A DNA stretch of 63,656 bases, counting the filler. It is 4 parts of 4 records of this genome, joined end to end, with 100 filler letters (N's around TTAATTAATTAA, not from the genome) between each part and the next. Parts side by side here need not be neighbours in the genome. Positions count along the whole stretch, not along the records: positions 46,191 to 63,656 come from SRR9188677_157; 3 more parts are not named here. One strand, written 5' to 3'. Below the pieces are notes generated by a model. That model ran no database searches. It was given only the letters and a program-made list of their open reading frames with translations, and was not told the origin of the DNA. The translations under genes and the position numbers were made by a program. Shown here piece by piece: positions 9,979 through 63,656 of the stretch. Each line of letters begins with the position of its first letter. Position 1 is the stretch's first letter.

Positions 9979-10078
9979 NNNNNNNNNNNNNNNNNNNNNN
10001 NNNNNNNNNNNNNNNNNNNNNNTTAATTAATTAANNNNNNNNNNNNNNNNNNNNNNNNNNNNNNNNNNNNNNNNNNNN
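9979..10078. other. Artificial contig-join spacer
   Basis: N-run with TTAATTAATTAA (stops in all frames). Confidence 0.98.
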
Positions 10079-10492: not shown

Positions 10493-10493
10493 G

Positions 10494-10565
10494 TGGCCCC
10501 GGAAGGAATCGAACCTTCATCTTAGGTACCGGAAACCTACATTCTATCCATTGAACTACGGAGCC
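10494..10565 (-). tRNA. tRNA-Arg(CCG)
   Basis: Cloverleaf with GGCTCCG/CGGGGCC acceptor, anticodon loop TT-CCG-GT and T-loop TTCGATT; CCA not encoded. Confidence 0.95.
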
Positions 10566-21797: not shown

Positions 21798-24683
21798 TCA
21801 GATTTTTCCTTTCAAAAAGTTAGCCGTATAATTCCCTTCTATCTTCGTCATTTGTTCGGGTGTTCCCTCAAAAGTAACAAAACCTCCTTTTTCCCCTCCT
21901 TCTGGTCCCAAGTCGATGATATAATCTGATGACATTATCACTTCCATATTATGTTCAATGATAATGACAGAATCTCCCTGTTCTACCAAAGCGTTGATGG
22001 CTTTCAATAATTTTTTGATGTCGTGAAAATGTAAACCCGTAGTTGGCTCATCAAAAATGAAAAGCGTTTTGCCTTTGTTCGGATTGCCTTTTCCTAAGAA
22101 ACTCGCCAATTTTACTCTTTGGGCTTCTCCGCCCGAAAGTGAATTGGACGATTGCCCCAATTTTACATAACCCAAACCTACTTCTTGTAAAGGCAATAAT
22201 TTGTCGGCTAATCTCGGTTGGTCTTTTTTGAAAAGTTCAATCGCTTCATCGACGGTCATGTCTAATATATCTGCAATGTCTTTCTCGTTGAATTTTACGT
22301 CTAAAATTTCTTGTTTAAAACGTTTTCCTCCGCAAGACTCACATTTCAATTTTACATCGGCCATAAACTGCATCTCAATCGTCACAAATCCTTCGCCTTG
22401 ACAAGTTTCACAACGCCCGCCTTCTACGTTGAACGAGAAATGCGCAGGTTTATAACCTCTGGCTTTGGCAATTGGTTGTTCAGAATACAATAAGCGAATT
22501 TGGTCATAAGCCTTGATGTATGTCACAGGATTTGAACGAGAGGATTTCCCAATTGGATTTTGGTCAACCATTTCTACGGCTTCAATCTTGCCAATACTTC
22601 CACTGATTTCGGCATATTTTCCTGCTTCGTCGGTATAAGTGCCCAAATGACGACCCAAAGCTGGATATAAAATTTTACGAATTAACGTAGATTTTCCAGA
22701 ACCACTTACACCTGTTACAGCCGTCAAAATTCCCAAGGGAAACTTAACACTCACATCCTTTAAATTATTCTCGTAAGCCCCTTTTACTTCGATAAAACTG
22801 GTTGATTTTCTACGGAATTTTGGTACTTCTATGGTATCGTGTCCTGTTAAAAAATTAATCGTGTGCGAAAATCTAGCTTCTGGTTTTGCTTTCGCTTCAA
22901 TATCATTAATGGTTTCCCAGTTTCCTTGAAAAACCAATTTTCCACCATTACTCCCAGCATCTGGACCAATATCAATAATTTGGTCAGCCGCACGCATGAC
23001 TTCTTCTTCGTGTTCTACCACGATTACGGTATTGCCCATATCTCGCAGAGATTCCAAAACAGAAACTAATCTTTGGGTATCTCTTGGATGCAAACCGATA
23101 GAAGGTTCATCTAAAATGTACATCGAACCCACCAAAGCACTACCCAAAGAAGTAGCCAATTTGATGCGTTGAAACTCGCCGCCCGAAAGTGTTGAAGATA
23201 AACGGTTGAGTGTTAAATAGCCTAAACCGACTTTCTCCATGTACTCCAAACGAGTTTCTATTTCTACTAAAATTCGTTTAGAAACACCATATTGATAATC
23301 AGGCAAATCAAGGTTTTTGAAGAAATCACTTACATCACTCAAAGGCATAAGTACCAAATCAATAATTGACTTCCCTTCGATTTTTACATATCCTGCATCT
23401 TTTCGCAAACGAGAACCCTTACAATCTGGACAAGTAGTTCGCCCACGATAGCGTGAAAGCATTACTCTGTATTGAATCTTGTGTGTTTCTTTTTCGAGCA
23501 TCGCAAAGAAATCATCCAGACCTTGAAAATATTCATTTCCCGTCCAGAGTAGTTCCTTTTGTTCGTCGCTTAAATCTTTGTAAGGTCGATGAATTGGGAA
23601 ATCGAATTTTGCCCCATTTTTCAATAATGGAATCAGCCATTCGCTCATTTTATCGGTTCTCCACGGAGCAATCGCTCCTTCGTAAACCGAAACACCTTTA
23701 TCGGGAATGATTAAATCAGGGTCGAGTCCGAGAATTCTACCAAAACCTTCACAACGTTTACAAGCACCATAAGGATTATTAAAGCTCAATAAATTCAAAG
23801 AAGGTTCTTCAAAAACAATTCCATCGGCTTCAAAACGGTCGGAGAATACTTTCGTTTCATCGCCTACAATTTCTACAAAACAAGTACCATTTCCCTCAAA
23901 AAAAGCCGTTTGGATAGAATCTGAAAGACGAAATTGCGTTTCCTCCTCTGGTTGTCCATCGGCTTCTTTTTTTATCACCACACGGTCAATGAGAATTTTA
24001 TAATTATTACTGAATAAATCTATCGCAGGCAAATTTTTAAGTGCTGCTTTATCGTCTAAAAGTTCTTCTAAAAATTTGGTTTCGCCATCAATCACAATAC
24101 GAGTATAGCCTTTTTGAAGTAAAATTTTCATTTCTTCTGAAAGCTTGCGTCCTTCTTTCAAGTAAAGTGGCGACAACACCATTACTCTTTGTCCTTCGTC
24201 TTTTGTAAACAAATAATTCACGACGTCTGTAACGGTATCTTTCCGTACTTCATTTCCAGAAATGGGCGAAAATGTTGTTCCAATTCTAGCAAAAAGTAAT
24301 TTGAGATAATCGTAAATTTCGGTAGTAGTTCCTACGGTAGAGCGTGGATTTTTACTCGACACTTTTTGTTCGATGGCGATGGCTGGTGAAATACCTTTGA
24401 TGTAATCTACATCAGGTTTTTCCATTCGCCCTAAGAATTGACGAGTATAAGAACTTAAACTTTCAACGTACATTCGTTGCCCTTCGGCAAAAAGAGTATC
24501 AAAAGCCAAGGACGATTTCCCGGAACCCGACAAACCCGTAATCACGACCAGTTTGTTGCGAGGAATGGCAACATCAATATTTTTTAGATTGTTTACTCTT
24601 GCCCCTTTGATGATGATAAAACGTTTAGGGTCAAGGTCTTCAAATGCAGTATGATTCTGGTTGATGATTTCGGTATTGTTCAT
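21798..24683 (-). CDS. uvrA: Excinuclease ABC subunit A, second paralogue
   Basis: [38 protein letters not shown] and LSGGEAQR; start MNNTEI. Confidence 0.93.
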
Positions 24684-24884
24684 GAAACAAAGATAAGAAA
24701 TTCTGAACTGTGAAAATTGGCTTTTCAACAATCAAATAATGATAAAAGAGGCAAGAAAATAAACCTATTTACTTAGAGACAAGTTTTCTAAAAAGATTGT
24801 TTCGTGCTTTACAAGAAAATAGATAATCTTTGCGTTAAATTAGCAGATTCTATCAACGTTTCTAAGAAAAAATAAAATATAACC

Positions 24885-26423: not shown

Positions 26424-26523
26424 NNNNNNNNNNNNNNNNNNNNNNNNNNNNNNNNNNNNNNNNNNNNTTAATTAATTAANNNNNNNNNNNNNNNNNNNNN
26501 NNNNNNNNNNNNNNNNNNNNNNN
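26424..26523. other. Artificial contig-join spacer
   Basis: N-run with TTAATTAATTAA; abrupt AT-rich to GC-rich change. Confidence 0.98.
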
Positions 26524-46090: not shown

Positions 46091-46190
46091 NNNNNNNNNN
46101 NNNNNNNNNNNNNNNNNNNNNNNNNNNNNNNNNNTTAATTAATTAANNNNNNNNNNNNNNNNNNNNNNNNNNNNNNNNNNNNNNNNNNNN
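46091..46190. other. Artificial contig-join spacer
   Basis: N-run with TTAATTAATTAA; GC-rich to very AT-rich change. Confidence 0.98.
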
Positions 46191-46616
46191 CATTGTCCAA
46201 TATTCCCCACTGCTGCCTCCTCAACAGAGATTGGGCCCTTTTCAGTCCCAACGTGGTTGTACGTCCTCCCAGACCAACTAAAGATCACAGGCTTGGTCCC
46301 CTTTTATTAAACCAACTACCATAATCTTACAATAATTACTTTTCACAACGATTAATCTTTATATAAAATAAATTGAATGAGGCAATCTTTAAAAACCACT
46401 TTACTCCATAAAAAATATGAAATAAAATTCATTTTAATTTATTTTAACTTATAAGGAGTTTAAATAACAATTGTTAATACGGAATTCCTTGCTGCGAAAA
46501 TTTTATATTAATGCATTACTCACTCGTACGCCATGAAAATTAATTTTCATTCGACTCGCATGTGTTAGGCACACCCATAGCGTTCACTCTGAGCCAGAAT
46601 CAAACCCATTCAATTC
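46191..46616 (-). rRNA. rns: Mitochondrial SSU rRNA, 5' portion (end approximate)
   Basis: Minus strand has GTTTGATTCTGGCTCAG, CCTAACACATGCGAGTCG and GGAGGCAGCAGTGGGGAATATTGGACAATG. Confidence 0.93.
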
Positions 46617-46696
46617 TAATCAAAAATCAATTTCGATAATTTAGACGTAACGCTAATAAAAAATTTATTAGCAATTTTTGATTTTTTATTTTATCT

Positions 46697-46770
46697 TCGA
46701 CCTGAGTGGATTTGAACCACTGACTTTACGCTTATCAAACGTACACTCTAACCAACTGAGTTACAGGTTA
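46697..46770 (-). tRNA. trnI: mt tRNA-Ile(GAU)
   Basis: Cloverleaf with loop TT-GAT-AA; acceptor TAACCTG/CAGGTCG has U1.G72 and A2xC71. Confidence 0.92.
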
Positions 46771-46771
46771 T

Positions 46772-48733
46772 TTATAAAACAGTAACCAAAACATAAATAA
46801 AAACCAATCCATAAAACATCGTTGAAAAATAAAAAGATAACCTACCGTTCTGTAAATGCAGTACCGCGCCACTTACTTTTGTTAAAAACCTAACACTACC
46901 TAAAGGACCAAAAATTTCCACAAATCCACGATCAATAACTCTAAACATGAACGCAAAACCGAATTCTAAAAAGTTTAATACAATATATTTATTATAAAAT
47001 TCATCAAAACAAAATTTTTTATTGAAAAATGTATATAAAAATAGTATACTTCTAATAATAAAACCGGAAAAATTAATATAAGATTTTACCATTAAAGCAT
47101 AAATAAAAAAACCTTTAAAATATGATACTACCAAATACCCTAAAAACAAACCAACAAAACTAAAAATCAAAGGAACCATTTTGTAAAATAACGGAATTAA
47201 TTCCAACTCAAAATAATTCCAATTTATTGCACCAAAACCTAAACTTACACCCCAAAAAGAACTTCCCATTCCAACAAACATATCTTTACAAATAAATCCA
47301 ATAAAAATACTTAAAAAAGCTAAAATACTTAACACAACTGTCATATAAATTGGCGACTCATGTACACCTGGTAACGAACCTTTATACCCATTAAATTTTC
47401 CAAAAAAAACTAATGTTAACAACCGCATTGAATAAAACGCGGTAAAAAACGCTGCGGTACTACCTATAAAAAAAACAAAAAAACCTTCTACAGTATAAAG
47501 ACTACACGCTCCTTCTAAAATAAAATCTTTTGAATAAAAACCAGTCAAAAATGGAAAACCTGTTAACGCTAAAGAACCTATTAAAAAACAAATATAACTT
47601 AAGGGCAACAATTTTACCAAACCACCCATTTTCCGTATGTCCTGTTCGTCACTGACAGCATGTATAACAGCTCCCGCACTTAAGAACAAAAGCGCTTTAA
47701 AAAATGCATGATTTGATAAATGAAAAATTGCGCCTTGAAAATTCGATAAACCACACGCAAATACCATATAACCTAGCTGGCTACACGTTGAATAAGCGAT
47801 AATCTTTTTTAAGTCATGCTGAAATGCTCCTACAACCGCAGCAAAAAAACTTGTTAAACCACCTACCACAACTACCACTTTTAAAAAATCAGTTGAAAGT
47901 TCGAACAATGTGCTACAGCGCAATAATAAAAAAACACCTGCTGTTACCATTGTTGCTGCATGAATCAACGCTGACACAGGTGTTGGGCCTTCCATAGCAT
48001 CTGGTAACCATGTATGTAGTCCTAGTTGAGCTGATTTTCCTACAACACCAATAAACAAAAATAAATTTATCAAAAACAAACTAGAAATACTAAAACCAAA
48101 CAATACAAAATCGTCAATAGTATACAACGACGCCATAAAAGAAATAAAATTAAAATCTAAACTTTTAAAAAAAAAAAAACAAAGTGAAATTCCAATTAAA
48201 AGGCCTAAATCACCCACACGATTAACAATTACCGCTTTTAACGCGGATTTAACAGCCTTCTGACGAGTAAACCAAAAACTAATTAATAAATATGAAGAAA
48301 TACCTACTCCTTCCCAACCTAAAAATAACTGCGCAAAGTTTTTAGCTGTTACTAAAAACAACATAAAAGCCGTAAATAGTGATAAATAACTCATAAACCT
48401 TACCAAAAAAGGATCACCATTCATATAATCATACGAATATAAGTGCACCAAACATGAAATACCGGTAACAACTATCAACATTACACAAGTTAATGAATCA
48501 TACATAAAACCCCATGCAAAATTTAATAACGACACTTTAAACCAGTCAAAACATGGTACATAACACACACTTTGCATTAAACAAACTTCATAAAATGCAA
48601 ATAACGAAACCAGTAAAGCAAAAAAACAATTAGTTATCGCAATTAATGAACTCCCAACACGACCAAAAAATCGACCAAACAACCATAATAAAAATACGCT
48701 ACTTATTGGAAAATACAACACTAATAAATACAT
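46772..48733 (-). CDS. nad5: NADH dehydrogenase subunit 5
   Basis: GWEGVG, NRVGD, KSAQLGLHTWLPDAMEGPTPVSALIHAATMV and HAFFKALLFL. Confidence 0.98.
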   Translation of the reverse strand: MYLLVLYFPISSVFLLWLFGRFFGRVGSSLIAITNCFFALLVSLFAFYEVCLMQSVCYVPCFDWFKVSLLNFAWGFMYDSLTCVMLIVVTGISCLVHLYSYDYMNGDPFLVRFMSYLSLFTAFMLFLVTAKNFAQLFLGWEGVGISSYLLISFWFTRQKAVKSALKAVIVNRVGDLGLLIGISLCFFFFKSLDFNFISFMASLYTIDDFVLFGFSISSLFLINLFLFIGVVGKSAQLGLHTWLPDAMEGPTPVSALIHAATMVTAGVFLLLRCSTLFELSTDFLKVVVVVGGLTSFFAAVVGAFQHDLKKIIAYSTCSQLGYMVFACGLSNFQGAIFHLSNHAFFKALLFLSAGAVIHAVSDEQDIRKMGGLVKLLPLSYICFLIGSLALTGFPFLTGFYSKDFILEGACSLYTVEGFFVFFIGSTAAFFTAFYSMRLLTLVFFGKFNGYKGSLPGVHESPIYMTVVLSILAFLSIFIGFICKDMFVGMGSSFWGVSLGFGAINWNYFELELIPLFYKMVPLIFSFVGLFLGYLVVSYFKGFFIYALMVKSYINFSGFIIRSILFLYTFFNKKFCFDEFYNKYIVLNFLEFGFAFMFRVIDRGFVEIFGPLGSVRFLTKVSGAVLHLQNGRLSFYFSTMFYGLVFIYVLVTVL

Positions 48734-48736
48734 TGT

Positions 48737-49045
48737 TTAACCTTTTATATTTTGTATACTATCTACCGCAATATAACCTTGCAACCTATAAAACACAACT
48801 AAAATTGCTAATCCGATCGCAGACTCCGATGCTGCAACGGTTAAAATAATTAAAGTGAAAATCTGACCAACTAAATCCCACCAAAGCAAAGAATATAATA
48901 AAAAATTAATATTACAAGCCAAAAGCAATAATTCAATCGACATTATAACAATAATAATATTTTTCCGACTGAAAAATATTCCATAAACCCCTATAAGAAA
49001 CAGAACAAACGGCAAATATAAAAACCAAATCATGGCTTTATCCAT
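48737..49045 (-). CDS. nad4L: NADH dehydrogenase subunit 4L
   Basis: MSIELLLLA and VAASESAIGLAILV. Confidence 0.96.
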   Translation of the reverse strand: MDKAMIWFLYLPFVLFLIGVYGIFFSRKNIIIVIMSIELLLLACNINFLLYSLLWWDLVGQIFTLIILTVAASESAIGLAILVVFYRLQGYIAVDSIQNIKG

Positions 49046-50099
49046 TTACACTAATTTTATTATACCATAAAGACCAGGTTGGAAAATCAAACGCTTCAAT
49101 ATGAACAGGCATAAAACCATGATTAACACCACAAATCTCACTACATTGACCATAATAGGTTCCGGGATACCAAATATACATGAAAGTTTGATTTAATCTT
49201 CCAGGACAAGCATCCATTTTAACACCCAATGCTGGAACCGCCCAACTATGCAAAACATCAGTAGAGGTAATGATTAATCTTATATAAACATTTGCTGGTA
49301 ATACTAAAGGATTATCTGTTTCTAACAACCGACGATCGCCAAAAGAAAGCATATCAGTTGGAACCATATAACTAGTAATCTCATGCGACTTTAAATTATC
49401 AATATCCAACCCATCCGCACTATCAAAACCAAAGCAATTAATTTCATAAGTCCAATACCATTGATGGCCTATAACTTTAATAACTAACATGCTCTGATCA
49501 ACATATTCATCCATCGAGTACAACAATAAAAACGACGGAATAGCAATACATAACAATATTAACGACGGAATGATTGTCCAAACAACCTCAATTGTTGTCC
49601 AATGATGAAAATTTCTTAACTCCCAACCAAACAAAAGCTTTTTATACTCGTTTTCAATTGTATCATTTTTTAATGTGACAAAAGGATTATTTCTTACACT
49701 TTCCTTCAAATAAGCACTCCATACGACACTGCTTGACCCTGCTAAGTGTGTTTTAAGCGCATTTTGCGCTGGTAATTTATCTAAAAATTGCACAAATAAA
49801 TGTTTGACAATACGACGCCAATGCCAAGTAAATGCATATTCCCTATGTGCTACAAAAATCCATATTATTAACCAACCAACAAATCCTATAATAAAAAATA
49901 AATAAAAACAAATATATGCATGCAAATCAATAATTCCATCCATAATAGGACTCGCTGGACCTTGAAATGCTGCTTGGCCATAATCCGCTGCTCCAACAAA
50001 ATTTGGGATATGCTCAAAACTACCAAAAGAGTTGTTTATTAAAACTCGTCCTAACTCAGACATTTTGTTCGAAAATGATTGTATCACATTAAATAACAT
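49038..50099 (-). CDS. cox2: Cytochrome c oxidase subunit 2 (N-terminal extension and internal insertion)
   Basis: FQ.PASPIM.GIIDLH, IEVVWT, GHQWYW, DVLHSWAVP and the CuA motif CSEICGVNHGFM. Confidence 0.97.
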   Translation of the reverse strand: MLFNVIQSFSNKMSELGRVLINNSFGSFEHIPNFVGAADYGQAAFQGPASPIMDGIIDLHAYICFYLFFIIGFVGWLIIWIFVAHREYAFTWHWRRIVKHLFVQFLDKLPAQNALKTHLAGSSSVVWSAYLKESVRNNPFVTLKNDTIENEYKKLLFGWELRNFHHWTTIEVVWTIIPSLILLCIAIPSFLLLYSMDEYVDQSMLVIKVIGHQWYWTYEINCFGFDSADGLDIDNLKSHEITSYMVPTDMLSFGDRRLLETDNPLVLPANVYIRLIITSTDVLHSWAVPALGVKMDACPGRLNQTFMYIWYPGTYYGQCSEICGVNHGFMPVHIEAFDFPTWSLWYNKISVNG

Positions 50100-50133
50100 A
50101 AAAAATTTATTGAAATATTTTTAATAGAAAACT

Positions 50134-50205
50134 CGGTGGAGATGGGAGTTGAACCCACATCATTCAAGTCGACAACCTGACCCTTTACCATTAAGATACT
50201 CCACA
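50134..50205 (-). tRNA. trnD: mt tRNA-Asp(GUC)
   Basis: Loop TT-GTC-GA and G73; acceptor TGTGGAG/CTCCACC has U1xC72. Confidence 0.92.
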
Positions 50206-50208
50206 AAC

Positions 50209-50282
50209 TACCCCCTGCGGGATTTGAACCCGCGTTACTGCCTTGAAAGAGCAATGTCCTGACCAGACTAGACGAAAGGGGT
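50209..50282 (-). tRNA. trnE: mt tRNA-Glu(UUC)
   Basis: Loop CT-TTC-AA; acceptor ACCCCTT/AGGGGGT is paired. Confidence 0.93.
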
Positions 50283-50304
50283 AATTTGTATAACTTTTAT
50301 AAGG

Positions 50305-50419
50305 ATGAAACTATATTCAACTTGTTTTTTTATTTAACCTCAATAAAGAAAACAAGCATTACACATTAAACGAGGTCAAAATGGTTTCGATTTTTGTAAT
50401 TATAAAAATATAATTTCAC
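50305..50419 (-). rRNA. rrn5: Candidate divergent mitochondrial 5S rRNA
   Basis: 115 nt. Terminal helix GTGAAATTATATT/AATATAGTTTCAT, ATTACA/TGTAAT helix II, CGA-AACCATTTTGACC-TCG loop-C-like hairpin, and a long CTTGTTTT(C)TTTATT/AATAAAAAAACAAG hairpin. Confidence 0.7.
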
Positions 50420-50432
50420 TAGTTTTCAGTAT

Positions 50433-50503
50433 TGGCGGAAGTCAGAATTGAACTAACATCTACAGATCATGAGCCTGTCGGGTTACCATTACCCCATTCC
50501 ATA
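50433..50503 (-). tRNA. trnM: mt tRNA-Met(CAU), possibly the initiator
   Basis: Anticodon arm ACAGG-CTCATGA-TCTGT; acceptor TATGGAA/TTCCGCC has U1xC72, A2xC71 and U3.G70. Confidence 0.88.
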
Positions 50504-50512
50504 ACACCAAAA

Positions 50513-50585
50513 TACCCTTGATAGGATTCGAACCTATATCTCAACCATTATGAGCGGTTTGTTTTAACCATTAAACTACAAGCCC
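50513..50585 (-). tRNA. mt tRNA with CAU anticodon (Ile2/lysidine type or elongator Met)
   Basis: Anticodon arm AACCG-CTCATAA-TGGTT; acceptor GGGCTTG/CAAGGGT has G1.U72, G2xG71 and G3xG70. Confidence 0.85.
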
Positions 50586-50599
50586 TTATAAAAATAATT

Positions 50600-50671
50600 G
50601 CGAATATAACTCAGCGGTAGAGTGCCAGATTGTGGTTCTGGAAGTCATGGGTTCAAATCCCATTATTCGCC
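50600..50671 (+). tRNA. trnH: mt tRNA-His(GUG)
   Basis: GCGAATA/TATTCGC acceptor, loop TT-GTG-GT and C73; position -1 (50599) is T. Confidence 0.95.
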
Positions 50672-50691
50672 TATTTAAACAAAATAACTAA

Positions 50692-52897
<2,206 letters not shown>

Positions 52898-52901
<4 letters not shown>

Positions 52902-54169
52902 CTTTGAATTTGATTAAAAGAAATTCTAAAAATTTTACGGCGTTTTCGCCCTTTACCTTTTCTATAAACCCTCGAACCGATAAAATTTAAACCAATCAAA
53001 AAAGAATCCTTCTTCAAACGCTTTTGATACCGAACAAATAAACGCCTTGGAACTTCGTTATACACTTTCTTGAAAGTTTTTTGAAAACTCGCAATCTTTA
53101 AGCCCCACTTCTTTGACTTCTTAAATTTAAACTTCTTGTTGTATTTTTTAGACCTTAATAAAAACAATTCATTACGGTTCTTTTGACGTTGAAAAAACGC
53201 AGTTTCCGTCTTTAATAAATTAAAAGAACCGGTACCATAACGACTTAGTAAGATCGAATATGGTAATAATTTTCTTTTGGCTTTTAAAATCATTCGACTT
53301 CTACGTAAAGCAAAAAAACGTCCTCGCATACTCTGACGTTTTTTTTTCATCACGGTAACGCCAAAATAATGTAAAATACGACGATACAGAGCAAAACTGA
53401 ACTGCGAAACATTAGAAGTACGTACAGACCCTCTTGTATTCATTCGAACAGCGAGCTTTGACACACTCCTATTTGTCCTCCGTAATAACCTTTTAATCCT
53501 TTTAGAATTAATTCTCTTTAACGCTAGAGATAAAACCTTTTGTAAGAAAGTAGTTCTTCTCATACAAAAACCTGTGCTCAAAGCTCCTAAAATGTTTAAA
53601 TAAAACAAACCTAACGAAAATTCCGAAGAATCATTCCCGGGAATCATATAAAACACTCCATAAGGACGTACATTAGTATCTGTAAAACCTATCGTCGGAA
53701 TCTTAAACTTTAAACATTCAAATAATACATCATAAGAACGTTTTACACTTGATAAAACAAAAATAGATGGAAATTTAAAAAAATTAATACACACAGAATT
53801 CCTTTTTATACGCCACTTATCTCTATACAAATACCGACCACTCCAAAATTTCCTATAATTAGTTAAAGTGCCAGGAAACCAATAACCCCAAAAAACTATC
53901 TGTCCCCATTTCTTCGAGAATAATTTTATCCAATGCAATACACTTTTACTCGCATCACTGAAACCAACCAAACCATACCCTTTTATAACGGCACTTAACA
54001 ACTTACTACTTTTACGCATCGCTAATAAAGTCACTTCAAGATCAATCAGAACCTTATTTTGAAAAACACGCTCCATAAAATAAGAATATCCTTTATCCCA
54101 AGAACCCGCTTCATTACCTAGATGCATCTTACTTTCAATTAATTGACTTAAATTTAATCTTAAAAGCAT
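52898..54169 (-). CDS. rps2: Ribosomal protein S2 with a long basic C-terminal extension
   Basis: HLG, W..GTLTN, IPTIG..DTN and IPGND motifs within aa 1-200. Confidence 0.88.
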
Positions 54170-54172
54170 TAT

Positions 54173-55678
54173 CTACATAAAAACATAACAACTTAAAGAT
54201 AAAATTGGACTTTCTACCAAATAAATAAACCATACAGGTAAAAATAACAATATTAAATTAACAGCACCACTTGCAAACAACACCAAACTATTAAAAAATG
54301 GCATCGGCAACACGAACAATTGTACCGCTACATCCTTGGAAATATCAAAAAATAACAAACGAACCAACCGCAAATAATAAAAAACACTAATCACAGTTAC
54401 TAAAAGTACAAAAATACATAAAAAAAAAAAATCGGACCAGACCAAATTATAAAACACTAAAAATTTTGATAAAAAACCACCCATAGGAGGTAAACCCGCT
54501 AATGAAAAAACCAAAATACAAAATAAAATACACGACACCGGAACACTAAAAAATAATCCCTTTAATTCACTTAAACGCTTAATCTTTAAACCATCTTCTG
54601 ATCGTATACCCAACAAAAAACTAAAAAGTCCAAAAGTTATACTAATATAAATTATAAAATAAATATGACCCGCCACCAAACCAGAAAAATTACCTACACA
54701 AAAACTTAAACCAATAAAGCCCGTATTCGCGATTGTACTGAAAGCCAATAACCTTTTTATTCGTGTTTGTAATAAAGCACCCAACGTTCCATATAAAATA
54801 GAACATATACTACTCACTAACAAAAATTTATAAAAATAATTATCATTTGGAATAGCAAAAAAAATTGTTATAAACCTTGTTAACACATTTAAAAGCGCAA
54901 TTTTTGGTACAACAGAAAAAAACAATGTTATAATCGTAGGCGCTCCTTCATAAACATCGGGAATCCAATTACTAAAAGGAAATAATCCCAACTTAAAAAA
55001 AACACCTAAAAAAATAAAAGATATACCAACAACTAAATTATAATCAAACATTTGAATACTCGCACAAAACAATGCATAATCACTCAAATTTGTTAAACCA
55101 CTTACACCATATAACAAACTTATACCAAACAAAATTAAACATGACGCAACAGAACCCATAATAAAATATTTCAAACCAGATTCAACCGAATAAATGCGAT
55201 TATACTTTAACGCAGCTAAAATATACAATGGTAAACTTTGCAGTTCCAAGCCAACATAAAATAAAATTAAATCATTCGAGCTTATGACTAACAACATACC
55301 TAAAACAGCCAACAAAATCAACAAACTAAATTCATATGCCTTAAATTTCTCATACTCCACATAAGATAAACTTAATAAAAAAAATACAATAGTAGAACCT
55401 ATTAAAAGAACTTTACAAAACGAACTATACTCGGTTACCGAATACAAAGAAGTACTTGTAAGCAGAACATTAAAATCATAAAGAAATAATAAATTAATTA
55501 AGAATAATACACTTATTAAAATACTAAAACCTATTAATACTTGAGATAACCAATTTGAACTTTTAAATTCTAAACGACTTAAATACAAACCAAAACAAAT
55601 TAGAAGAACAATCGCTGTTCCAAACGCAAATTCGGGAATTTCAAAAACCCTTAATTCAATTCTTTGTAAAATTGCCAT
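54173..55678 (-). CDS. nad2: NADH dehydrogenase subunit 2
   Basis: LELQSL..Y.LA, ESGLKYF, FKLG..PF..W.PDVYEGAP and FSLAGLPP..GF..K. Confidence 0.96.
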   Translation of the reverse strand: MAILQRIELRVFEIPEFAFGTAIVLLICFGLYLSRLEFKSSNWLSQVLIGFSILISVLFLINLLFLYDFNVLLTSTSLYSVTEYSSFCKVLLIGSTIVFFLLSLSYVEYEKFKAYEFSLLILLAVLGMLLVISSNDLILFYVGLELQSLPLYILAALKYNRIYSVESGLKYFIMGSVASCLILFGISLLYGVSGLTNLSDYALFCASIQMFDYNLVVGISFIFLGVFFKLGLFPFSNWIPDVYEGAPTIITLFFSVVPKIALLNVLTRFITIFFAIPNDNYFYKFLLVSSICSILYGTLGALLQTRIKRLLAFSTIANTGFIGLSFCVGNFSGLVAGHIYFIIYISITFGLFSFLLGIRSEDGLKIKRLSELKGLFFSVPVSCILFCILVFSLAGLPPMGGFLSKFLVFYNLVWSDFFFLCIFVLLVTVISVFYYLRLVRLLFFDISKDVAVQLFVLPMPFFNSLVLFASGAVNLILLFLPVWFIYLVESPILSLSCYVFM

Positions 55679-55682
55679 AGTT

Positions 55683-57398
55683 TTAATACTTTTCTACATA
55701 AAATAAATTGTAACAAAAATCTTCAATAAAATCAAAATAATATACAGAACCTATACCAAATATTAATACAATAACAAATAAAAAACCTAAAATACAAAAT
55801 TCACTTCGCGTTAGATCAGAAAAACCATACAACGTATAAGCCCTTAAAGAACCAAACATTACACGATTATACAACCATATCGAATAAACCGCACTAAAAA
55901 CTAAACCTATACCGGACACTACAAACAAAAATAAATTTTGACGAACCAAACCTATTGAAACTAGAAATTCACCTACAAAACTACTTGTTCCAGGAAAACC
56001 CATATTTGCAACCAAGAAAAATAACAAAAAAAAACTGTAAACAGGCATTAACAAAGTTAATCCTCCATAATAATAAATATTACGGGTATGATAACGATCA
56101 TATAACATACCAACACAAAAAAATAAAGCTCCAGACACAATACCATGACTCAACATTAAAAATACAGATCCTACAAACGCTTGAAAGTCAAAGGCAAACA
56201 AACCCAAAACCACAAAATTCATATGTACAATTGAAGAATAGGCTATTATTTTTTTCAAATCAATTTGGCGCAGTGTACTAAACGAACAATAAATAATACC
56301 TAATAAACTAAAAAACATAACAACAGGGGCCATAAACTCATTATATTCGCTAAAAATAGACAAGGAAACACGAATCATTCCAAAACCTCCTAATTTTAAC
56401 AAAACACCTGCCAATAAAACCGAACCTGCTGTTGGAGCTTCCACATGCGCTTCAGGTAACCAAATATGAACTGGAAACATTGGTATTTTTGCTGCAAACG
56501 CAATGAAAAAAAAAAACCAAAGAATAATACCCGCTACAAAAGGTAATAAACTAGTTTTATTAAATAAAGTACTTAATAAAATCATATCACACGAACCTAA
56601 CTGAACATACAAAAATAAAATTCCTATTAACATAAAAATAGACCCAAATAAAGTATATAAAAAAAATTGATAAGCCGCATGAATTTTTCGTTCTCTTGAA
56701 CCCCAAATTCCAATCATTAAAAACATTGGAATTAAAATAGACTCAAAATAAATATAAAACCATAATAAATCACCAGAAAAAAATACATTATACAATAAAA
56801 ATTCAATTAAAAATAACAAAATTATATTTAAATTTAAAAACTTTAAATTAGATTCAATATTATACAAGATACATAAAAAGATTAAAAAACCAGTTAATAA
56901 ACTAAAAGAAAGACTCAATTCATCCACAATCACATCACTCTCAAAACCAAACCAATCCTCACCCGCAAAAAACCTTATAAAAAAATTACGATTCTCTGGA
57001 AATTGAACATAAAGTGATTGAATATCTAAAGTGCGTTTATATAAAATATTATATGGAACTAATGTTAAAATACAATTTAAAATAAGCAAAACTATCAAAA
57101 ACACACAATTACCTAAAGAAATCCATAACGACATCTTTGGAAAATTCTTGAAAAAAATAAAACCGATCAAAATAATTAAACCCATATAGGACATACCATC
57201 ATACAAAAAAACTTCTATACGGTCTAAAAAAATAATTAAATTTCCCGCTTTAAGTGTCGGTGCTAATAATAAATAATCTGAATCATACACAACTGAACCA
57301 AAAAACAATTCAACTAATTCATTCACGTGATATTTTGGGGAATAATATAAAGATTCCGCCTGCTTTTGCAACGATATTGCCGTATTTATATTGACCAT
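55683..57398 (-). CDS. nad4: NADH dehydrogenase subunit 4 (N-terminal extension; start uncertain)
   Basis: FES.LIPM, K.PM.P.H.WLPEAHVEAPTAGSV.LAG..LKLG and IIAYSS..HM. Confidence 0.96.
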   Translation of the reverse strand: MVNINTAISLQKQAESLYYSPKYHVNELVELFFGSVVYDSDYLLLAPTLKAGNLIIFLDRIEVFLYDGMSYMGLIILIGFIFFKNFPKMSLWISLGNCVFLIVLLILNCILTLVPYNILYKRTLDIQSLYVQFPENRNFFIRFFAGEDWFGFESDVIVDELSLSFSLLTGFLIFLCILYNIESNLKFLNLNIILLFLIEFLLYNVFFSGDLLWFYIYFESILIPMFLMIGIWGSRERKIHAAYQFFLYTLFGSIFMLIGILFLYVQLGSCDMILLSTLFNKTSLLPFVAGIILWFFFFIAFAAKIPMFPVHIWLPEAHVEAPTAGSVLLAGVLLKLGGFGMIRVSLSIFSEYNEFMAPVVMFFSLLGIIYCSFSTLRQIDLKKIIAYSSIVHMNFVVLGLFAFDFQAFVGSVFLMLSHGIVSGALFFCVGMLYDRYHTRNIYYYGGLTLLMPVYSFFLLFFLVANMGFPGTSSFVGEFLVSIGLVRQNLFLFVVSGIGLVFSAVYSIWLYNRVMFGSLRAYTLYGFSDLTRSEFCILGFLFVIVLIFGIGSVYYFDFIEDFCYNLFYVEKY

Positions 57399-57416
57399 TT
57401 GTTTTACCAATTTCGA

Positions 57417-57695
57417 TTAAGATAAGCCTTTTAAAAGGTGACTAACCCTTGAACAAACCCAGACATTCAACACTAAAGGTGATGTTAAATTAAATGTTTT
57501 ATAAACATCATACTTTAGCATACGCACTTTTAATTTTACTGCAACAATTGAAGAAGTACTAAAAAGTTTTATCATTACACCCCAAACAAGATGATAAATA
57601 AAACCCTCCTCTCCAAATTCTAAGATCTTAAGACCAATCACAGATCCTTTTTTTATAGATGTTTTTAAACCTTTTAACGGAAATTTTAAAATCAT
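57417..57695 (-). CDS. rpl19: Putative divergent ribosomal protein L19
   Basis: The pattern IKKGSVI.LKI...GV.I...V..TF.L.SP.V..V.V aligns by eye to the bL19 core (G-D-x-V...GV.I...VE..F..HSP.V..I.V). Confidence 0.6.
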   Translation of the reverse strand: MILKFPLKGLKTSIKKGSVIGLKILEFGEEGFIYHLVWGVMIKLFSTSSIVAVKLKVRMLKYDVYKTFNLTSPLVLNVWVCSRVSHLLKGLS

Positions 57696-57725
57696 AGTAA
57701 TAGCTATTTTAATATATTGAAGGAA

Positions 57726-57797
57726 AGGCTAGAATCGGACTTGAACCGATATATTAAATTTTGCAAATTTATACATTAACCATTATGTTATCTAGCT
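57726..57797 (-). tRNA. trnC: mt tRNA-Cys(GCA)
   Basis: Loop TT-GCA-AA and U73; acceptor AGCTAGA/TCTAGCC has A1xC72. Confidence 0.92.
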
Positions 57798-58045
57798 TTC
57801 CCCATCAGAACTAAATAAAAAACAAATAAAAATAATACTCGAGAAATACGTACCGTTGGAATACTTTTTCGTTTTAAAGACCATTTAACTTCATTTAAGC
57901 GCAACGAAATAAATGAATAATTAGACTTAATTAATAAATCCTTTTTCCATGAACCTAATTTCTTTAAAACTTTATGACCCGATACGGCGCATAGCACACC
58001 AGTTTTTGACGAACCTGCTCTAGGGTTTTTTACTAAAATTTTCAT
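57788..58045 (-). CDS. rps16: Putative divergent ribosomal protein S16
   Basis: 85-aa basic ORF from ATG 58045; KVLKKLGSW...ISLRLNEVKWSL.....PT.RI..VL resembles bS16 (FIE.LG.Y...L....I..WL..GA.PT..V..LL). Confidence 0.6.
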   Translation of the reverse strand: MKILVKNPRAGSSKTGVLCAVSGHKVLKKLGSWKKDLLIKSNYSFISLRLNEVKWSLKRKSIPTVRISRVLFLFVFYLVLMGKAR

Positions 58046-58062
58046 GTTTGATAAATAAAATC

Positions 58063-58135
58063 GTGTGAGTAGCTCAGTGGTTAGAGTAGAAGTTTGAAAA
58101 ACTTTTGGTCGGCGGTTCAAATCCGCCCTCACACA
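58063..58135 (+). tRNA. trnF: mt tRNA-Phe(GAA)
   Basis: Perfect GTGTGAG/CTCACAC acceptor and loop TT-GAA-AA. Confidence 0.95.
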
Positions 58136-58138
58136 TAA

Positions 58139-58221
58139 ATCCGCTTGGTGGAATGGTAGACACGGTAAACTCAAAATTTATTTTCCTAACGGAAATATCG
58201 GTTCAAGTCCGGTAGCGGATA
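58139..58221 (+). tRNA. trnL: mt tRNA-Leu(CAA)
   Basis: Perfect ATCCGCT/AGCGGAT acceptor, loop CT-CAA-AA and a long variable arm TTTCC-TAAC-GGAAA. Confidence 0.94.
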
Positions 58222-58242
58222 ACACAATTAAAAAAATATTCT

Positions 58243-59022
58243 TTAATGACCTGGCTCAGAAAATGAATCATTTAAATAAATACTTACCAACACCGCAAAA
58301 ACATAAGCTTGCAAAAACGCAATACCAACCTCTAAAAAAAAAATTAAAATAACTAAAACCAATGGTATTAAAGGTAAAAAATCAAAAAACGATACGCTAC
58401 CATTTATAAAAGCAATATTACCTTTTACATAAAACGATGTTAAAATAAACAACAAGGCATGACCAGAAGTCATATTTGCAAATAACCGAATTGCCAAACT
58501 AAACATTCGAGACAAATAAGATACAAATTCAATTACAACTAAAAACGGTACTAAGGCAACTGGAACATCCTTCGGGACAAATAAATTTAAAAATTTCAAA
58601 CCATGACGCTCAAAACCCAAAATCGTTAAACCAGTAAAAAACATAAAACTTAACGTAAATGTTGTCATTAAATGACTTGTTAATGTAAAACCAAATGGAA
58701 ATAAGCCAAAAACATTAAACACCAAAATCGAAACAAACAAAGTCATTAATAAAGGAAAGTAGTCTTTCGCTTTTGTACCTACTTGCTGCAAAATAATACT
58801 ATAGATAAAATTATATAAACTCTCTAAACTAAATAAATAAACATTTGGAATCAAAAAACCATTAACAAAATTAGAAGCAGCCAAAAAAAATACAACCGTA
58901 AAAAGTGAAATACAAATCATTTCTAATAAATAATTTGTTATAAATAATTTTATACCAAATAAAATTTCCGTGTGGGAAATAAAAAAAATTTCAAATTGTT
59001 CTAACGGGGAAAAATATAACAT
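58243..59022 (-). CDS. atp6: ATP synthase F0 subunit a
   Basis: SPLEQF, SLAIRLFANM.SGH and LE..IAFLQAYVF. Confidence 0.97.
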   Translation of the reverse strand: MLYFSPLEQFEIFFISHTEILFGIKLFITNYLLEMICISLFTVVFFLAASNFVNGFLIPNVYLFSLESLYNFIYSIILQQVGTKAKDYFPLLMTLFVSILVFNVFGLFPFGFTLTSHLMTTFTLSFMFFTGLTILGFERHGLKFLNLFVPKDVPVALVPFLVVIEFVSYLSRMFSLAIRLFANMTSGHALLFILTSFYVKGNIAFINGSVSFFDFLPLIPLVLVILIFFLEVGIAFLQAYVFAVLVSIYLNDSFSEPGH

Positions 59023-59023
59023 C

Positions 59024-60178
59024 TTATTTTACTACTGATTTTTCATACTGTCCTTCAAGCCATTCTATCGCAGGTAACACAATGAAAAAATGAGCAAAAT
59101 AATAAAATGTGCTTACTTTACTCAAACTTAAATATGGCTCCTCCAAAGGCATCCCGCCTATCCAAAATAAAATAAAAAAATTAAAAATAAATAACCAAAA
59201 AAAAAACGTTCCAATTAATTTAAATCTTGCAGAACGACATATTGGTTTAACATAATACGGGATAATGACTAATATTAAAATAGCAAACAATAATAGAACA
59301 ACACCCAATAATTTATTTGGAACAGAACGTAAAATCGCATAAAAAGGTAAAAAATACCATTCCGGAACAATATGAGCCGGTGTTGATTGTGGATTAGCTG
59401 GAATATAGTTATCAGGATGACCTAAATAATCTGGATATGCCAACATAAAAACCAACATAATATAAGTACAAAATACAATACCATGAATATCTTTAACCAA
59501 ATAATAAGGCATTAACGGAACATCATCGTATTTTTTAAACGAAACACCTAACGGATTGTTAGAACCATGTTCATGTAATAAAACAATATGTAATAATACT
59601 AAACCTAAAATTAAAAAGGACAACGTATAATGTAAACTGAAAAATCGATTTAATGTCACAGTACTAACAGAAAATCCACCCCAAAGCCATTTTAAAATAT
59701 CAACTCCAATAACGGGTACCGTCGAAACTAAATTAGTAATTACTGTTGCAGCCCAATAACTCATTTGACCCCAAGGTAAAACATAACCCAAAAACGCAGT
59801 GATAATCATAACTAAAAAAATAATTACACCAACAATCCACAACAATTCTCTTGGTTTACTATATGATGAATAATACAAACCACGAAAAATATGTAAATAT
59901 ACCAATAAAAAAAAAAATGAAGCACCGTTAGCATGCCAATAACGTAAAAACCAACCATAATTTACATCACGCATTATATGTTCAACACTATTAAATGCCA
60001 TATCCGTATGCGGTATATAATGCATTGCTAAAAAAATACCGGTCAATAATTGTAATACAAAAACAAACAAGATCAACGAACCAAAATTCCAGAGATAATT
60101 TAAATTCGACGGACTTGGATAATGCCAAGCACTTCTATAAATTGCTAATAAAAAATGAAACTGTTTTATTAAACGCAT
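59024..60178 (-). CDS. cob: Apocytochrome b
   Basis: [31 protein letters not shown] and PEWYFL. Confidence 0.99.
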
Positions 60179-60184
60179 AAAATT

Positions 60185-61363
60185 TTAACGATCTACTTCT
60201 CCAAAAACTATATCTTGAGTTCCAATAATAGTAACAACATCCGCAATCATATGCCCTTTGGACATAAAATCTAACCCTTGCAAATGAAAAAATCCTGGTG
60301 AACGAATTCTACAACGATAAGGCTTATTAGTACCATCAGAAACTAAAAACACACCAAACTCACCTTTCGGCGCTTCAACTGCCCTATATATACTACCTTG
60401 GGGCACTACAAAACCTTCAGAAAACAATTTAAAATGGTGAATTAAAGACTCCATCGAGTGCTTCATATGAGCACGCGTCGGTGGAACAACTTTATTATTT
60501 TCCGTTTTTACAGGTCCAGACTCAATCAAATTGATACATTGATTCAAAATACATATACTTTGACGCATCTCATGAATACGAATCAAATACCGGTCATAAC
60601 AATCACCATTTAAACCAATAGGAACATCAAATGAAATAGATTCATAAATTTCATAAGGTTGATTTTTACGCAAATCCCATGAAACACCCGAACCTCTAAC
60701 CATTACTCCAGTAAAACCATGATTTAAAGCCTCTTCTGCACTGACAACACCTATATCAACCAACCTTTCTTTCCAAATCCTATTACCAGTTAATAATTCT
60801 TCTAACTCATCAACTCTTGCGCTGAACTGTACAATAAATGTATAAATATCATCCAATAAACCTACAGGCAAATCCTGATCGACACCACCTGGTCGGATAT
60901 AAGCCGCATGTAATCTAGCACCCGAAACACGCTCATAAAATTCCATTAACTTTTCACGTTCCTCAAAACCCCAAAGAAATGGTGTTAAAGCTCCTACATC
61001 AAGAGCATGCGTGGTAATAGCCAATAAATGATTCAATATTCGAGTAATTTCAGCAAAAATAACACGAATATACTGGGCCCGGACAGGAATTTCACACTGT
61101 AACAAGGATTCCACAGCTAAAGAATAGGCATGTTCTTGGGCCATCATCGAAACATAATCTAAACGATCAAAATAAGGTAAAGCCTGCAAATAATTTTTAG
61201 TTTCAATTAATTTTTCGGTACCACGATGTAACAAACCTATATGTGGATCTGCTCGTTCAACCACCTCTCCATTTAACTCCAATACTAGACGTAAAACTCC
61301 ATGCGCGGCTGGATGTTGCGGACCAAAATTCAATGAAAACGATTTTAATTCTTGTAATTCCAT
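60185..61363 (-). CDS. nad7: NADH dehydrogenase subunit 7
   Basis: [28 protein letters not shown] and [12 protein letters not shown] 61363. Confidence 0.98.
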
Positions 61364-61368
61364 AATTT

Positions 61369-61977
61369 TTACCAGTCTTTTACCTCGACATCCCAAGGGC
61401 TTAATCCTTCTTGCAATCTAAATTCTTGACTTATCTCTAAATCAACTGAAACAACACTTTTTTGTTCATCATCATAAAAAACCTCAGTGAAACCACTTAA
61501 CGGAAAATCTTTTCTTAAGGGATAACCCGCAAAACCATAATCCGTTAATATACGACGTAAATCGGGATGATTAGCAAAAAAAACACCGTACATATCCCAA
61601 ACCTCGCGCTCTAACCAATTAGCTCCTTTAAAAACAGGAGTTAGCGAATGAACAAAATCAAACTCACCAGCCATGGTATAAAATAATACCCTAAAATTTA
61701 ATCTTAAACTTGTTAAGTTATAATAAATAGAAAATCTTTTTGATTTCGATGGATAATCAACCGCAAATAAATCAATTAATTGTCTAAAACCAAATAACCC
61801 GTGATCACGCAAAAACAAAAAAATTAATGGTAAATCAGCAGTATTCGCAACTTGAACATGCACAGTCGGGATTTTACAACGAAAATCTAAAAAGAAATTC
61901 TCAACATGCCTTGGAAAAACATCTTGTAAATAACGACAAAACTTTAATTCCGGTGTAAAATAATTATTTATTCCCAT
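61369..61977 (-). CDS. nad9: NADH dehydrogenase subunit 9
   Basis: [17 protein letters not shown] and [25 protein letters not shown] 61977 overlaps the nad3 end by 10 nt. Confidence 0.96.
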
Positions 61978-62342
61978 TCTAACGCCCCTTTTGACCACTC
62001 ATACACAAAACCTACTGTTAAAATAACTAAAAAATAAAACATACTCCAAAACCCAAAACTACCTAAATCAGTAAAAACCAATACCCACGGAAACAAAAAC
62101 GAAACCTCTAAATCAAATATAATAAATAAAATAGCAACCAAATAAAACCTTACATCAAACTTACTTCTAGCATCATCAAACGGAGAAAAACCACACTCAT
62201 ACGGAGATACTTTCTCCACATCACGGTTTTGTAAAATTAAGCGGTACGATAAGAATAAAATTAATGAAGAAATAATAAAAACCAAAATAAATAAAAAAAA
62301 AACAAATTTATAATTTAGAAAAATCCAACTTAAATGTTTCAT
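61968..62342 (-). CDS. nad3: NADH dehydrogenase subunit 3
   Basis: [28 protein letters not shown] and YEW.KGALEW. Confidence 0.97.
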
Positions 62343-62346
62343 TTAT

Positions 62347-62823
62347 TTAAACTAATAATAACGTTCTACTAAAAAAAAATAAAAAACGATAATGTACAAA
62401 ATTAAGATTAAACATTAAATTATTTAAACTAACAAAATTTAATAAACCCACTAAAATTAAACCATTAGCAATAGAATTTATATAACTAATAAAATTTTTA
62501 ACAGACAAAAATTCACTTAAATACTTAGACAAAATAATACGCAAAGAAACCAAAGTCTTATAAAAAACAAATAAAAATAAAGATTGTTCACTCAAACCTT
62601 TTACAGTTTCATATAAATCTCGTTGTATCGCAGCAAACGAACGAATTAAATTAACACGCAAATTAACCAAACGACCCGTTACATCACGATAAAACAATAC
62701 ACTTAAAACTGAAAAACATAGTGTTCCGCAAAGACCTAATACAAATTCTTCCTGGCCTTCGGCTGTACGTTCGACTACAAACGCAGTCTCTTGCATTATA
62801 TTTACAAATAATAAATTTAACAT
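62347..62823 (-). CDS. atp4: Putative ATP synthase subunit b (atp4/orf25/ymf39)
   Basis: QEEFVLGLC resembles the NEE..(V/I)..C motif before a TM; position next to atp8; 158 aa. Confidence 0.6.
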   Translation of the reverse strand: MLNLLFVNIMQETAFVVERTAEGQEEFVLGLCGTLCFSVLSVLFYRDVTGRLVNLRVNLIRSFAAIQRDLYETVKGLSEQSLFLFVFYKTLVSLRIILSKYLSEFLSVKNFISYINSIANGLILVGLLNFVSLNNLMFNLNFVHYRFLFFFSRTLLLV

Positions 62824-62865
62824 AATTTTAACTCCTAATTATACTTACTTCTTTGGATTAATAAT

Positions 62866-63282
62866 TTAATCAACCCATAAAGAACTTTCTGCTACTTTTA
62901 GAAATGATAATAAAACTTTAACTCTTAAAAAAAAATAATTTAAATTATTCAATAAACTTGAAAAAAATGTATTTTCCAATAGCTTATAAACAAAAATAGA
63001 ATTCCAATTAACAACATGAACAATTGACAACGAATTTACTAAATTTGGCAAATAACCTAAAAACAATGATAACAATTTTAAAAAACCTTTATGGATTAAA
63101 CTTCCAAAAGCCAAACCATCCTTATTTTCGCCTTCTAATTCAAATAATAAAAATTGACGTAATTCAATTTGCATCCGAATTAATGGTAAAATAACCAACC
63201 GAAAGAAAAAATAAAACGCCCAGAAGAAAATAACCATTAAAAAAATCTGATCTAAAAACGTTAACCGATCTAACTGCGGCAT
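62866..63282 (-). CDS. atp8: ATP synthase subunit 8 (orfB type)
   Basis: MPQLD..TF..Q start followed by a TM helix and LP.I....R. Confidence 0.9.
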   Translation of the reverse strand: MPQLDRLTFLDQIFLMVIFFWAFYFFFRLVILPLIRMQIELRQFLLFELEGENKDGLAFGSLIHKGFLKLLSLFLGYLPNLVNSLSIVHVVNWNSIFVYKLLENTFFSSLLNNLNYFFLRVKVLLSFLKVAESSLWVD

Positions 63283-63339
63283 CCGTTCCCCAAAACCAAG
63301 ACAACCCTTCTTTTAGAAACACTCGTTTCTTATTCTTCT

Positions 63340-63656
63340 ATTTTTTTGATTAATAAGTTATTTCTAGCTCCAATTGTTACCAACCGTCAACCTGAAAACT
63401 TAATGATAGTCTTTCACAAATCTAAAATAATAGAAAATTATTATTAAAGCAACCTTCCCAGCTTTATACGATATCAGCGGTTATGTTGTTATACTTAGCG
63501 TCCCAGCAATGCTTTTTAACAACTGGTCAACCAGCGGTATATCTTCTCCGGTCCTCTCGTACTAAGAAAAGAACTTTTCAATCTTCTAACTTTTGCGGCA
63601 GATAGGGACCGAACTGTTTCACAACGTTCTAAACCCAGCTCACGTACCACTTTAAT
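63340..63656 (-). rRNA. rnl: Mitochondrial LSU rRNA, 3' portion (3' end approximate)
   Basis: Minus strand has GTACGTGAGCTGGGTTTAGAACG...CAGTTCGGTCCCTATC and the sarcin-ricin loop AGTACGAGAGGACC (63550-63563). Confidence 0.93.

Follow-up and report, generated by a model that had tools for sequence, protein, structure and literature searches.

The 63,656-nucleotide stretch of DNA analysed here (the window, at its full length) joins four contigs, the last of which is mitochondrial and derives from a protist. This contig encodes nine transfer RNAs (tRNAs), and five of them – tRNA-Ile(GAU), tRNA-Asp, tRNA-Cys and two tRNAs with the anticodon CAU – contain between them seven non-canonical pairs, every one of which lies in the first three pairs of the acceptor stem. 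The pattern is real and far beyond chance, and all of the mismatches are confined to the mitochondrial contig. We propose that the five tRNAs probably undergo 5′ editing of the type known from Acanthamoeba and Dictyostelium, in the mitochondria of an uncultured protist, which would likely make this a further instance of a process already known. What the DNA shows directly is the mismatch pattern, how far it is conserved, the constraint on the genes and the strand that carries the consensus base; from these we infer removal and re-synthesis of 5′ nucleotides, the enzyme responsible and the mature sequences.

Acceptor stems of the mitochondrial tRNAs

The tRNA genes were located with ARAGORN and with the Rfam tRNA covariance model (Infernal), which agree on nine genes in the mitochondrial contig; besides these and a tenth gene on a bacterial contig (see below), a permissive covariance scan of the window finds no further tRNA at E <= 1. 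The register of each acceptor stem was taken from the seven pairs adjoining the T stem and agrees with Infernal. For Asp, Glu, Cys and the first CAU tRNA, ARAGORN draws flanking bases into an eight-pair stem and so reports each gene one base too long. For this CAU tRNA the covariance model aligns positions 4-67 only, and pairs 1-3 were therefore taken from the bases themselves. The contig and its tRNA genes are as follows.

46191..63656, minus strand: mitochondrial contig, from Pfam and ribosomal RNA (rRNA) matches and the bounding N run
46697..46770, minus strand: trnI(GAU); U1.G72, A2xC71; pairs 3-7 Watson-Crick
50134..50205, minus strand: trnD(GUC); U1xC72; discriminator G73
50209..50282, minus strand: trnE(UUC); acceptor fully paired; 3 bases upstream of trnD, no overlap
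50433..50503, minus strand: CAU tRNA 1; U1xC72, A2xC71, U3.G70; read directly
50513..50585, minus strand: CAU tRNA 2; G1.U72, G2xG71, G3xG70
50600..50671, plus strand: trnH(GUG); fully paired; C73; T at -1
57726..57797, minus strand: trnC(GCA); A1xC72; discriminator U73
58063..58135, plus strand: trnF(GAA); acceptor stem fully Watson-Crick
58139..58221, plus strand: trnL(CAA); acceptor stem fully Watson-Crick

Non-canonical pairs occupy seven of the 27 cells at acceptor pairs 1-3, none of the 36 at pairs 4-7 – which are Watson-Crick in all five affected tRNAs – and none of the 162 remaining stem pairs overall; the probability that all seven mismatches fall within 27 of 189 stem cells is 5.8e-7. 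The acceptor stems of tRNA-Glu, tRNA-His, tRNA-Phe and tRNA-Leu(CAA) are fully paired. The affected tRNAs are otherwise canonical: Infernal scores them at 46.6-61 bits, its gathering score being 29, and marks no non-canonical pair in their D, anticodon or T arms. A preliminary description of this DNA had listed these mismatches tRNA by tRNA, placed them in pairs 1-3 of five of the nine tRNAs and called the other arms normal; the Infernal marks and direct reading of the bases bear it out in each detail.

The controls, parsed identically, are 227 tRNAs; they come from 78 other loci that a cox2 search retrieved from metagenomes. Mismatches occupy six of their 681 cells at pairs 1-3 and affect four of the 227 tRNAs, compared with five of nine in the window (Fisher p = 2.6e-6). 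Mis-registration of control stems would add mismatches to the controls, so the comparison is conservative.

The mitochondrial contig has two independent relatives among Joint Genome Institute (JGI) metagenome contigs, L081 (87.6% DNA identity) and L082 (87.4%), in which the same nine tRNA genes follow one another in the same order. The acceptor tops of four of the five mismatched tRNAs are identical in these relatives (that of trnI(GAU) in L082), and CAU tRNA 2 is identical at 73 of 73 positions in both; CAU tRNA 1 differs in both, having AAA at 5′ positions 1-3 and T at position 71. Overall the tRNA genes match at 581 of 591 positions (98.3%) in L081 and 432 of 437 (98.9%) in L082, and the five affected genes at 95.8-100% between relatives, while the same comparison gives 86.9% for coding sequence and 85.5-88.6% for non-genic DNA. 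This identity far above that of coding DNA indicates that purifying selection maintains the genes and that they are no pseudogenes.

The lineage is represented in 19 sequencing runs from 11 studies of wastewater, river, aquatic and biofilm samples, which hold its sequence in whole or in part. Over 46600-58300 we compared contigs from one DNA run (X2) and from RNA libraries of three studies (X1, X4 and X5). Record 1 of X1 spans 46600-50211 with a single difference, at 46672; record 19 of X4 (49647-50315) and record 11 of X2 (49842-50456) have none, and the RNA-library contigs have the genomic letters across trnI, trnD, trnE, trnC and the CAU tRNA 2/trnH region. Because the same mismatches recur in L081 and L082 and the letters of the window recur in these DNA- and RNA-library contigs, assembly error is rejected as their origin; the preliminary description had left it as a way in which its reading could fail, and independent contigs, rather than reads, dispose of it.

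In X1 a single contig of depth 53 runs from the rns 5′ flank through trnI, nad5, cox2 and trnD and ends at 50211, beside the trnE/trnD junction, and contigs past this point have depths of 3-20. The stop at 50211 could be a processing site or a mere assembly break.

The lineage provides 13 tRNA species in about 25 kb of readable sequence. One of these, trnA(UGC) of L082 (13678-13750), has the G3.U70 alanine identity pair and a non-canonical pair, 27-43, at the top of the anticodon stem; no other non-canonical pair among the 13 species lies outside acceptor pairs 1-3.

The deviant strand and the case for 5′ editing

Each mismatched tRNA was compared with its homologues in the control loci to see which strand departs from the consensus. 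Of the seven mismatched pairs, five have a consensus 3′ base opposite a deviant 5′ base: those of Asp and Cys, the two of CAU tRNA 1, and Ile 2-71. G1, C72 and G73 are present in 7/7 control trnD genes, and G1, C72 and U73 in 10/10 control trnC genes; both window genes deviate at position 1 only, and trnC shares its entire 3′ strand with the homologue in L090. The core of trnI is almost identical to homologues with a GGG/CCC stem top, and the gene keeps C71 – the consensus base, as the nearest homologues have G2-C71 – and is deviant at position 2. The 3′ strand of CAU tRNA 1 resembles that of the L104/L122 homologue, and 5′ repair would recreate the matching 5′ strand. Since the 3′ base is the consensus in five of seven pairs, repair of the 5′ strand on the 3′ strand as template is favoured over repair of the 3′ strand as in jakobids. 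Comparison of the relatives shows changes at 2/15 positions within 5′ sites 1-3 of the five tRNAs, compared with 8/650 other tRNA sites (p = 0.019); this faster change fits bases that are discarded, and is suggestive, the numbers being small.

CAU tRNA 1 has two features unusual for a Met or Ile-CAU tRNA: G37 (anticodon loop CUCAUGA), which it shares with one control tRNA (in L159), and a G11-C24 pair (purine11-pyrimidine24).

We suggest that in the transcripts of the five tRNAs the first 5′ nucleotides are unable to pair, that one to three of these are removed during or after 5′ processing, and that a nucleus-encoded, mitochondrion-targeted Thg1-like 3′-5′ polymerase re-adds nucleotides using positions 72-70 as template. 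The predicted mature 5′ ends would be G for tRNA-Asp, G for tRNA-Cys, GG(C/U) for CAU tRNA 1, (C/U)G for tRNA-Ile(GAU) – where repair would supply G2 and possibly C1 – and (A/G)CC for CAU tRNA 2. The ends forecast in the preliminary description for Asp, Cys and CAU tRNA 1, and G2 of Ile, follow from the 3′ consensus; the C1 that it gave for Ile is only possible, and it made no forecast for CAU tRNA 2. Its broader proposal of 5′ editing stands as the best reading of the DNA, given the match to the known signature and the consensus on the 3′ strand.

The tRNA-His gene is relevant to such a polymerase. In the window, L081 and L082 alike it has T at -1 and C73, and thus does not encode G-1, which is encoded in three of four control trnH genes. 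The Dictyostelium discoideum mitochondrial tRNA-His has the same layout, and in the account of PMC5041481 G-1 is added to it by the mitochondrial enzyme DdiTLP2, while 5′ editing is performed by DdiTLP3. By analogy, the layout gives indirect support to a 3′-5′ polymerase in these mitochondria, and addition of G-1 opposite C73 is probably the work of this polymerase or of a sister enzyme. Some organisms dispense with G-1 altogether (PMC6471195), so the layout is not proof of the enzyme.

Several points weigh against 5′ editing of all five tRNAs, one of which is CAU tRNA 2. Five control loci hold its closest homologues, with 5′ GGG (AGG in L085), C70, C71, and U or C at 72; CAU tRNA 2 keeps the consensus GGG and U72, and the deviant bases are G70 and G71 of the 3′ strand, so that the strand relationship is reversed for both of its mismatched pairs. 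Repair of its 5′ end would invert two ancestral G-C pairs and not restore them. The contrast in rate between strands is also weak, as 3′ sites 70-72 changed at 1/15 positions (p = 0.21). Moreover, the lineage is assigned to none of the groups in which 5′ editing has been demonstrated, and its link to Amoebozoa is weakly supported (see below). A further point is neutral: no edited letter is seen in the RNA-library contigs, among 40 of 170 difference rows, but such contigs cannot show small mature RNAs, and unedited letters would be expected of precursors or of contaminating DNA.

The reversed case can be accommodated in more than one way. According to PMC3061083, a bacterial Thg1-like protein adds any of the four templated N+1 nucleotides about equally well; as templated C is added as efficiently as G, the C additions that CAU tRNA 2 would need are enzymatically plausible. 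Repair of its 3′ strand, on the other hand, would restore the ancestral stem. One can thus imagine end repair in both directions, or with pyrimidine insertion, in a widespread protist lineage that possibly lies outside the groups with demonstrated editing: four tRNAs would be mended at the 5′ end on the 3′ template, and CAU tRNA 2 either mended at the 3′ end or rebuilt with two C's. We regard this reading as unlikely. A 2014 review (PMC4284800, section 5.1) notes that no organism had been found to use both 5′ and 3′ editing.

A reading that dispenses with editing, in which the mismatched acceptor tops are simply tolerated in the mature tRNAs, as numerous mismatches are in those of animal mitochondria, seems to us similarly improbable. 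It would account for the purely genomic letters in the RNA-library contigs and for the conservation of the mismatched bases themselves between relatives in four of the five tRNAs, and bacterial-type initiator tRNAs naturally have a 1-72 mismatch. However, tolerated mismatches should scatter over the stems, whereas here they make up 7/27 cells in pairs 1-3 and 0/162 elsewhere, in tRNAs whose other features are bacteria-like and whose sequences are strongly conserved. With two neighbouring GxG pairs, or UxC together with AxC, two to three of the seven acceptor pairs would be open, and G1-C72, lost here from tRNA-Asp and tRNA-Cys, is present in all of their control homologues.

Editing of the 3′ strand in all five tRNAs, with nucleotides 70-73 replaced to pair with the 5′ strand as in the jakobid Seculamonas or in centipedes, is less probable still. 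CAU tRNA 2 fits such a process, having consensus 5′ GGG and deviant G70 and G71 at which C's would restore the ancestral stem, but even there a change is needed at position 70, beyond the 71-73 range of the Seculamonas activity. In the other tRNAs 3′ editing would replace C72 of Asp and Cys, which is invariant in 7/7 and 10/10 control homologues, and an activity that supplies mainly C and A could not provide the U required opposite A1 of Cys, A2 of Ile and A2 of CAU tRNA 1. Judged from sequence, then, the mending needed here departs from the jakobid pattern of mainly C and A at 71-73. There are also no overlapping tRNA genes like those that drive metazoan 3′ editing, trnE and trnD being 3 bases apart.

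Two further explanations have very little to recommend them. Decay of the five genes, with their function taken over by imported cytosolic tRNAs, would be in keeping with the frequency of mitochondrial tRNA import in protists and with the small tRNA set of the lineage (13 species in its ~25 kb), but not with 95.8-100% identity between relatives, set against 86.9% for coding DNA, nor with D, anticodon and T arms devoid of non-canonical pairs. C-to-U deamination on the 3′ strand, for which factors are reported in some amoebozoans and heteroloboseans (PMC4202320), would convert AxC to A-U in three of the seven mismatches (Ile 2-71, CAU tRNA 1 2-71 and Cys 1-72), but cannot mend the two UxC and two GxG pairs and would destroy the invariant C72 of tRNA-Cys.

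Known editing systems and the affinity of the lineage

The DNA signature of mitochondrial 5′ tRNA editing, as set out in PMC4284800, is that tRNAs encoded by mitochondrial DNA (mtDNA), normal in other respects, have mismatches that do not extend beyond the third acceptor pair. Mismatches in the first three pairs mark both 5′ editing (Acanthamoeba, dictyostelids, Physarum and chytrids) and the 3′ editing of Seculamonas, according to PMC4284800 and PMC3590771. If 5′ editing is confirmed here, an uncultured lineage will join the short list of organisms with this process in their mitochondria. A single fragment would then offer three types of substrate: templated purine additions, a likely templated G-1 on tRNA-His, and the GxG case, which bears on whether a repair polymerase inserts C in vivo or a 3′ pathway coexists.

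In Acanthamoeba castellanii 12 of 15 mitochondrial tRNAs are reported as 5′ edited (PMC4284800). The fragment described here resembles that genome in having mismatches only at 1-72, 2-71 and 3-70, in several tRNAs, with the 3′ strand mostly holding the templating base. It differs in the smaller share of tRNAs affected (5/9 on this fragment, where editing is predicted from DNA), in having cox1 and cox2 as separate genes, in reading frames that do not need TGA as Trp, and in one tRNA whose GxG pairs require incorporation of C. The replacements in Acanthamoeba are purines, and 5′ edits are not known to insert other bases.

Dictyostelium discoideum, with 10 of 18 mitochondrial tRNAs given as 5′ edited (PMC4284800), shares with our lineage the mismatch signature and a trnH without encoded G-1 but with C73, at which templated addition of G-1 is possible; the organism here is, however, not a dictyostelid. 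Dictyostelids themselves are described as differing in whether G.U and U.G pairs are edited. In Heterolobosea 5′ editing is predicted for 8/11 mitochondrial tRNAs of Acrasis kona and 8/20 of Naegleria (PMC4202320) and, as here, the prediction comes from DNA alone, with mismatches in the first one to three acceptor pairs of well-conserved tRNAs. No heterolobosean is found among the named cob or cox1 matches.

The 3′ editing of Seculamonas is described as introducing mainly C and A at 71-73 in just two tRNAs (PMC4284800). The mismatches there also lie within the first three acceptor pairs, but it is the 3′ strand that is repaired, whereas here that strand holds the consensus base in four of the five tRNAs. 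Among chytrids, Spizellomyces, Harpochytrium and Monoblepharella are listed as 5′ editors (PMC4284800). They have the same signature, whereas the mtDNA described here encodes nad7, nad9 and rps2, to which its relative L082 adds nad11, rps4 and atp1. Fungal mtDNAs are not known to carry these genes.

The affinity of the lineage was sought through its proteins. Three of five proteins looked up (cob, cox2 and nad5) are found identical, only in metagenome records, on contigs of up to 38,270 bases. A metagenome scan with cox2 gives L081 and L082 as the only close relatives, and more distant members of the lineage are recognized as proteins (rps2 at 81-64% identity, cox1 at 83% and 72%). Scanning bacterial and archaeal genome contigs with cox1 yields bacterial records only, mostly alphaproteobacterial by title, the best at 67%; a cox2 scan of viral contigs gives no match, and a search of the protein Atlas returns generic nad5 clusters only. 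In addition to the genes named above, L082 encodes nad1, cox3 and atp9.

The best named cox1 matches are three stramenopiles (68-69%), but in the cox1 tree the four-member clade of the window is isolated at the end of a long branch, more than two changes per site from them, and a stramenopile origin is rejected. For cob the best named match is the amoebozoan Clydonella sawyeri (61%, versus 59-60% for jakobids), and in the cob tree the window clade and the Clydonella clade lie within a clade of 85 rows with a Shimodaira-Hasegawa-like approximate likelihood ratio (SH-aLRT) value of 99. Clydonella is the sole named member of this clade, which excludes the jakobids, an apusomonad and bacteria. In the genes present, the use of a single coding strand and the clustering of tRNA genes, the mtDNA agrees with descriptions of amoebozoan, and also of oomycete, mtDNAs (PMC7194472). 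Our best guess from these sequences, weakly supported, is that the lineage belongs to Amoebozoa.

Gene content and the remainder of the window

The four contigs of the window are divided by paired runs of 44 N's at 9979-10078, 26424-26523 and 46091-46190, and their compositions are so different that features should not be read across the joins. The first two are bacterial, with a low G+C content (0.33-0.38 over 1-24 kb) and Pfam matches for OmpA/TPR, a PAS histidine kinase and two UvrA-like genes. The third is also bacterial, with a G+C content of ~0.61-0.65 over 28-44 kb and a PhaC synthase gene (Pfam), and the mitochondrial contig has ~0.29-0.33 between 48 and 60 kb. The mitochondrial contig seems to have strayed into a bacterial bin, and its presence among bacterial contigs matters to users of that assembly.

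Almost all genes of the mitochondrial contig are on one strand, and its reading frames are open under translation table 11, with no requirement for TGA as Trp. In minus-strand order these are the rnl 3′ end, atp8, orf158, nad3, nad9, nad7, cob, atp6, (trnL and trnF on the plus strand), trnC, two nad2/nad4-type genes, rps2, nad6, cox1, (trnH on the plus strand), the two CAU tRNAs, trnE, trnD, cox2, nad5, trnI and the 5′ part of rns. The two rRNA genes are thus incomplete, with the 5′ 425 bases of rns and only the 3′ end of rnl. Other features of the window are listed here.

10493-10565: tRNA-Arg; the tenth tRNA gene of the window, on a bacterial contig
12683-15520, minus strand: UvrA-like gene, 945 amino acids
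21798-24731, minus strand: UvrA-like gene, 977 amino acids, same low-G+C bacterial contig as the preceding gene
49038-50099, minus strand: cox2, 353 amino acids
52898-54169, minus strand: rps2, 423 amino acids
62347-62823, minus strand: orf158, between atp8 and nad3

Three of the mitochondrial genes deserve mention. The transmembrane domain of cox2 is matched by Pfam in two stretches, with the periplasmic domain starting at residue 205, which suggests an insertion of ~100 residues in the N-terminal part. The S2 domain of rps2 is matched only partly, and the clear relatives of this protein are confined to six metagenome clusters at 95-64% identity, so it appears to be a fast-evolving, lineage-specific form. 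No Pfam match is found for orf158 at E <= 0.01, and from its position it may be atp4/ymf39. On the bacterial side, the UvrA-like gene at 21798-24731 has the weaker UvrA domain scores of the two, which suggests that it is a class II UvrA paralogue.

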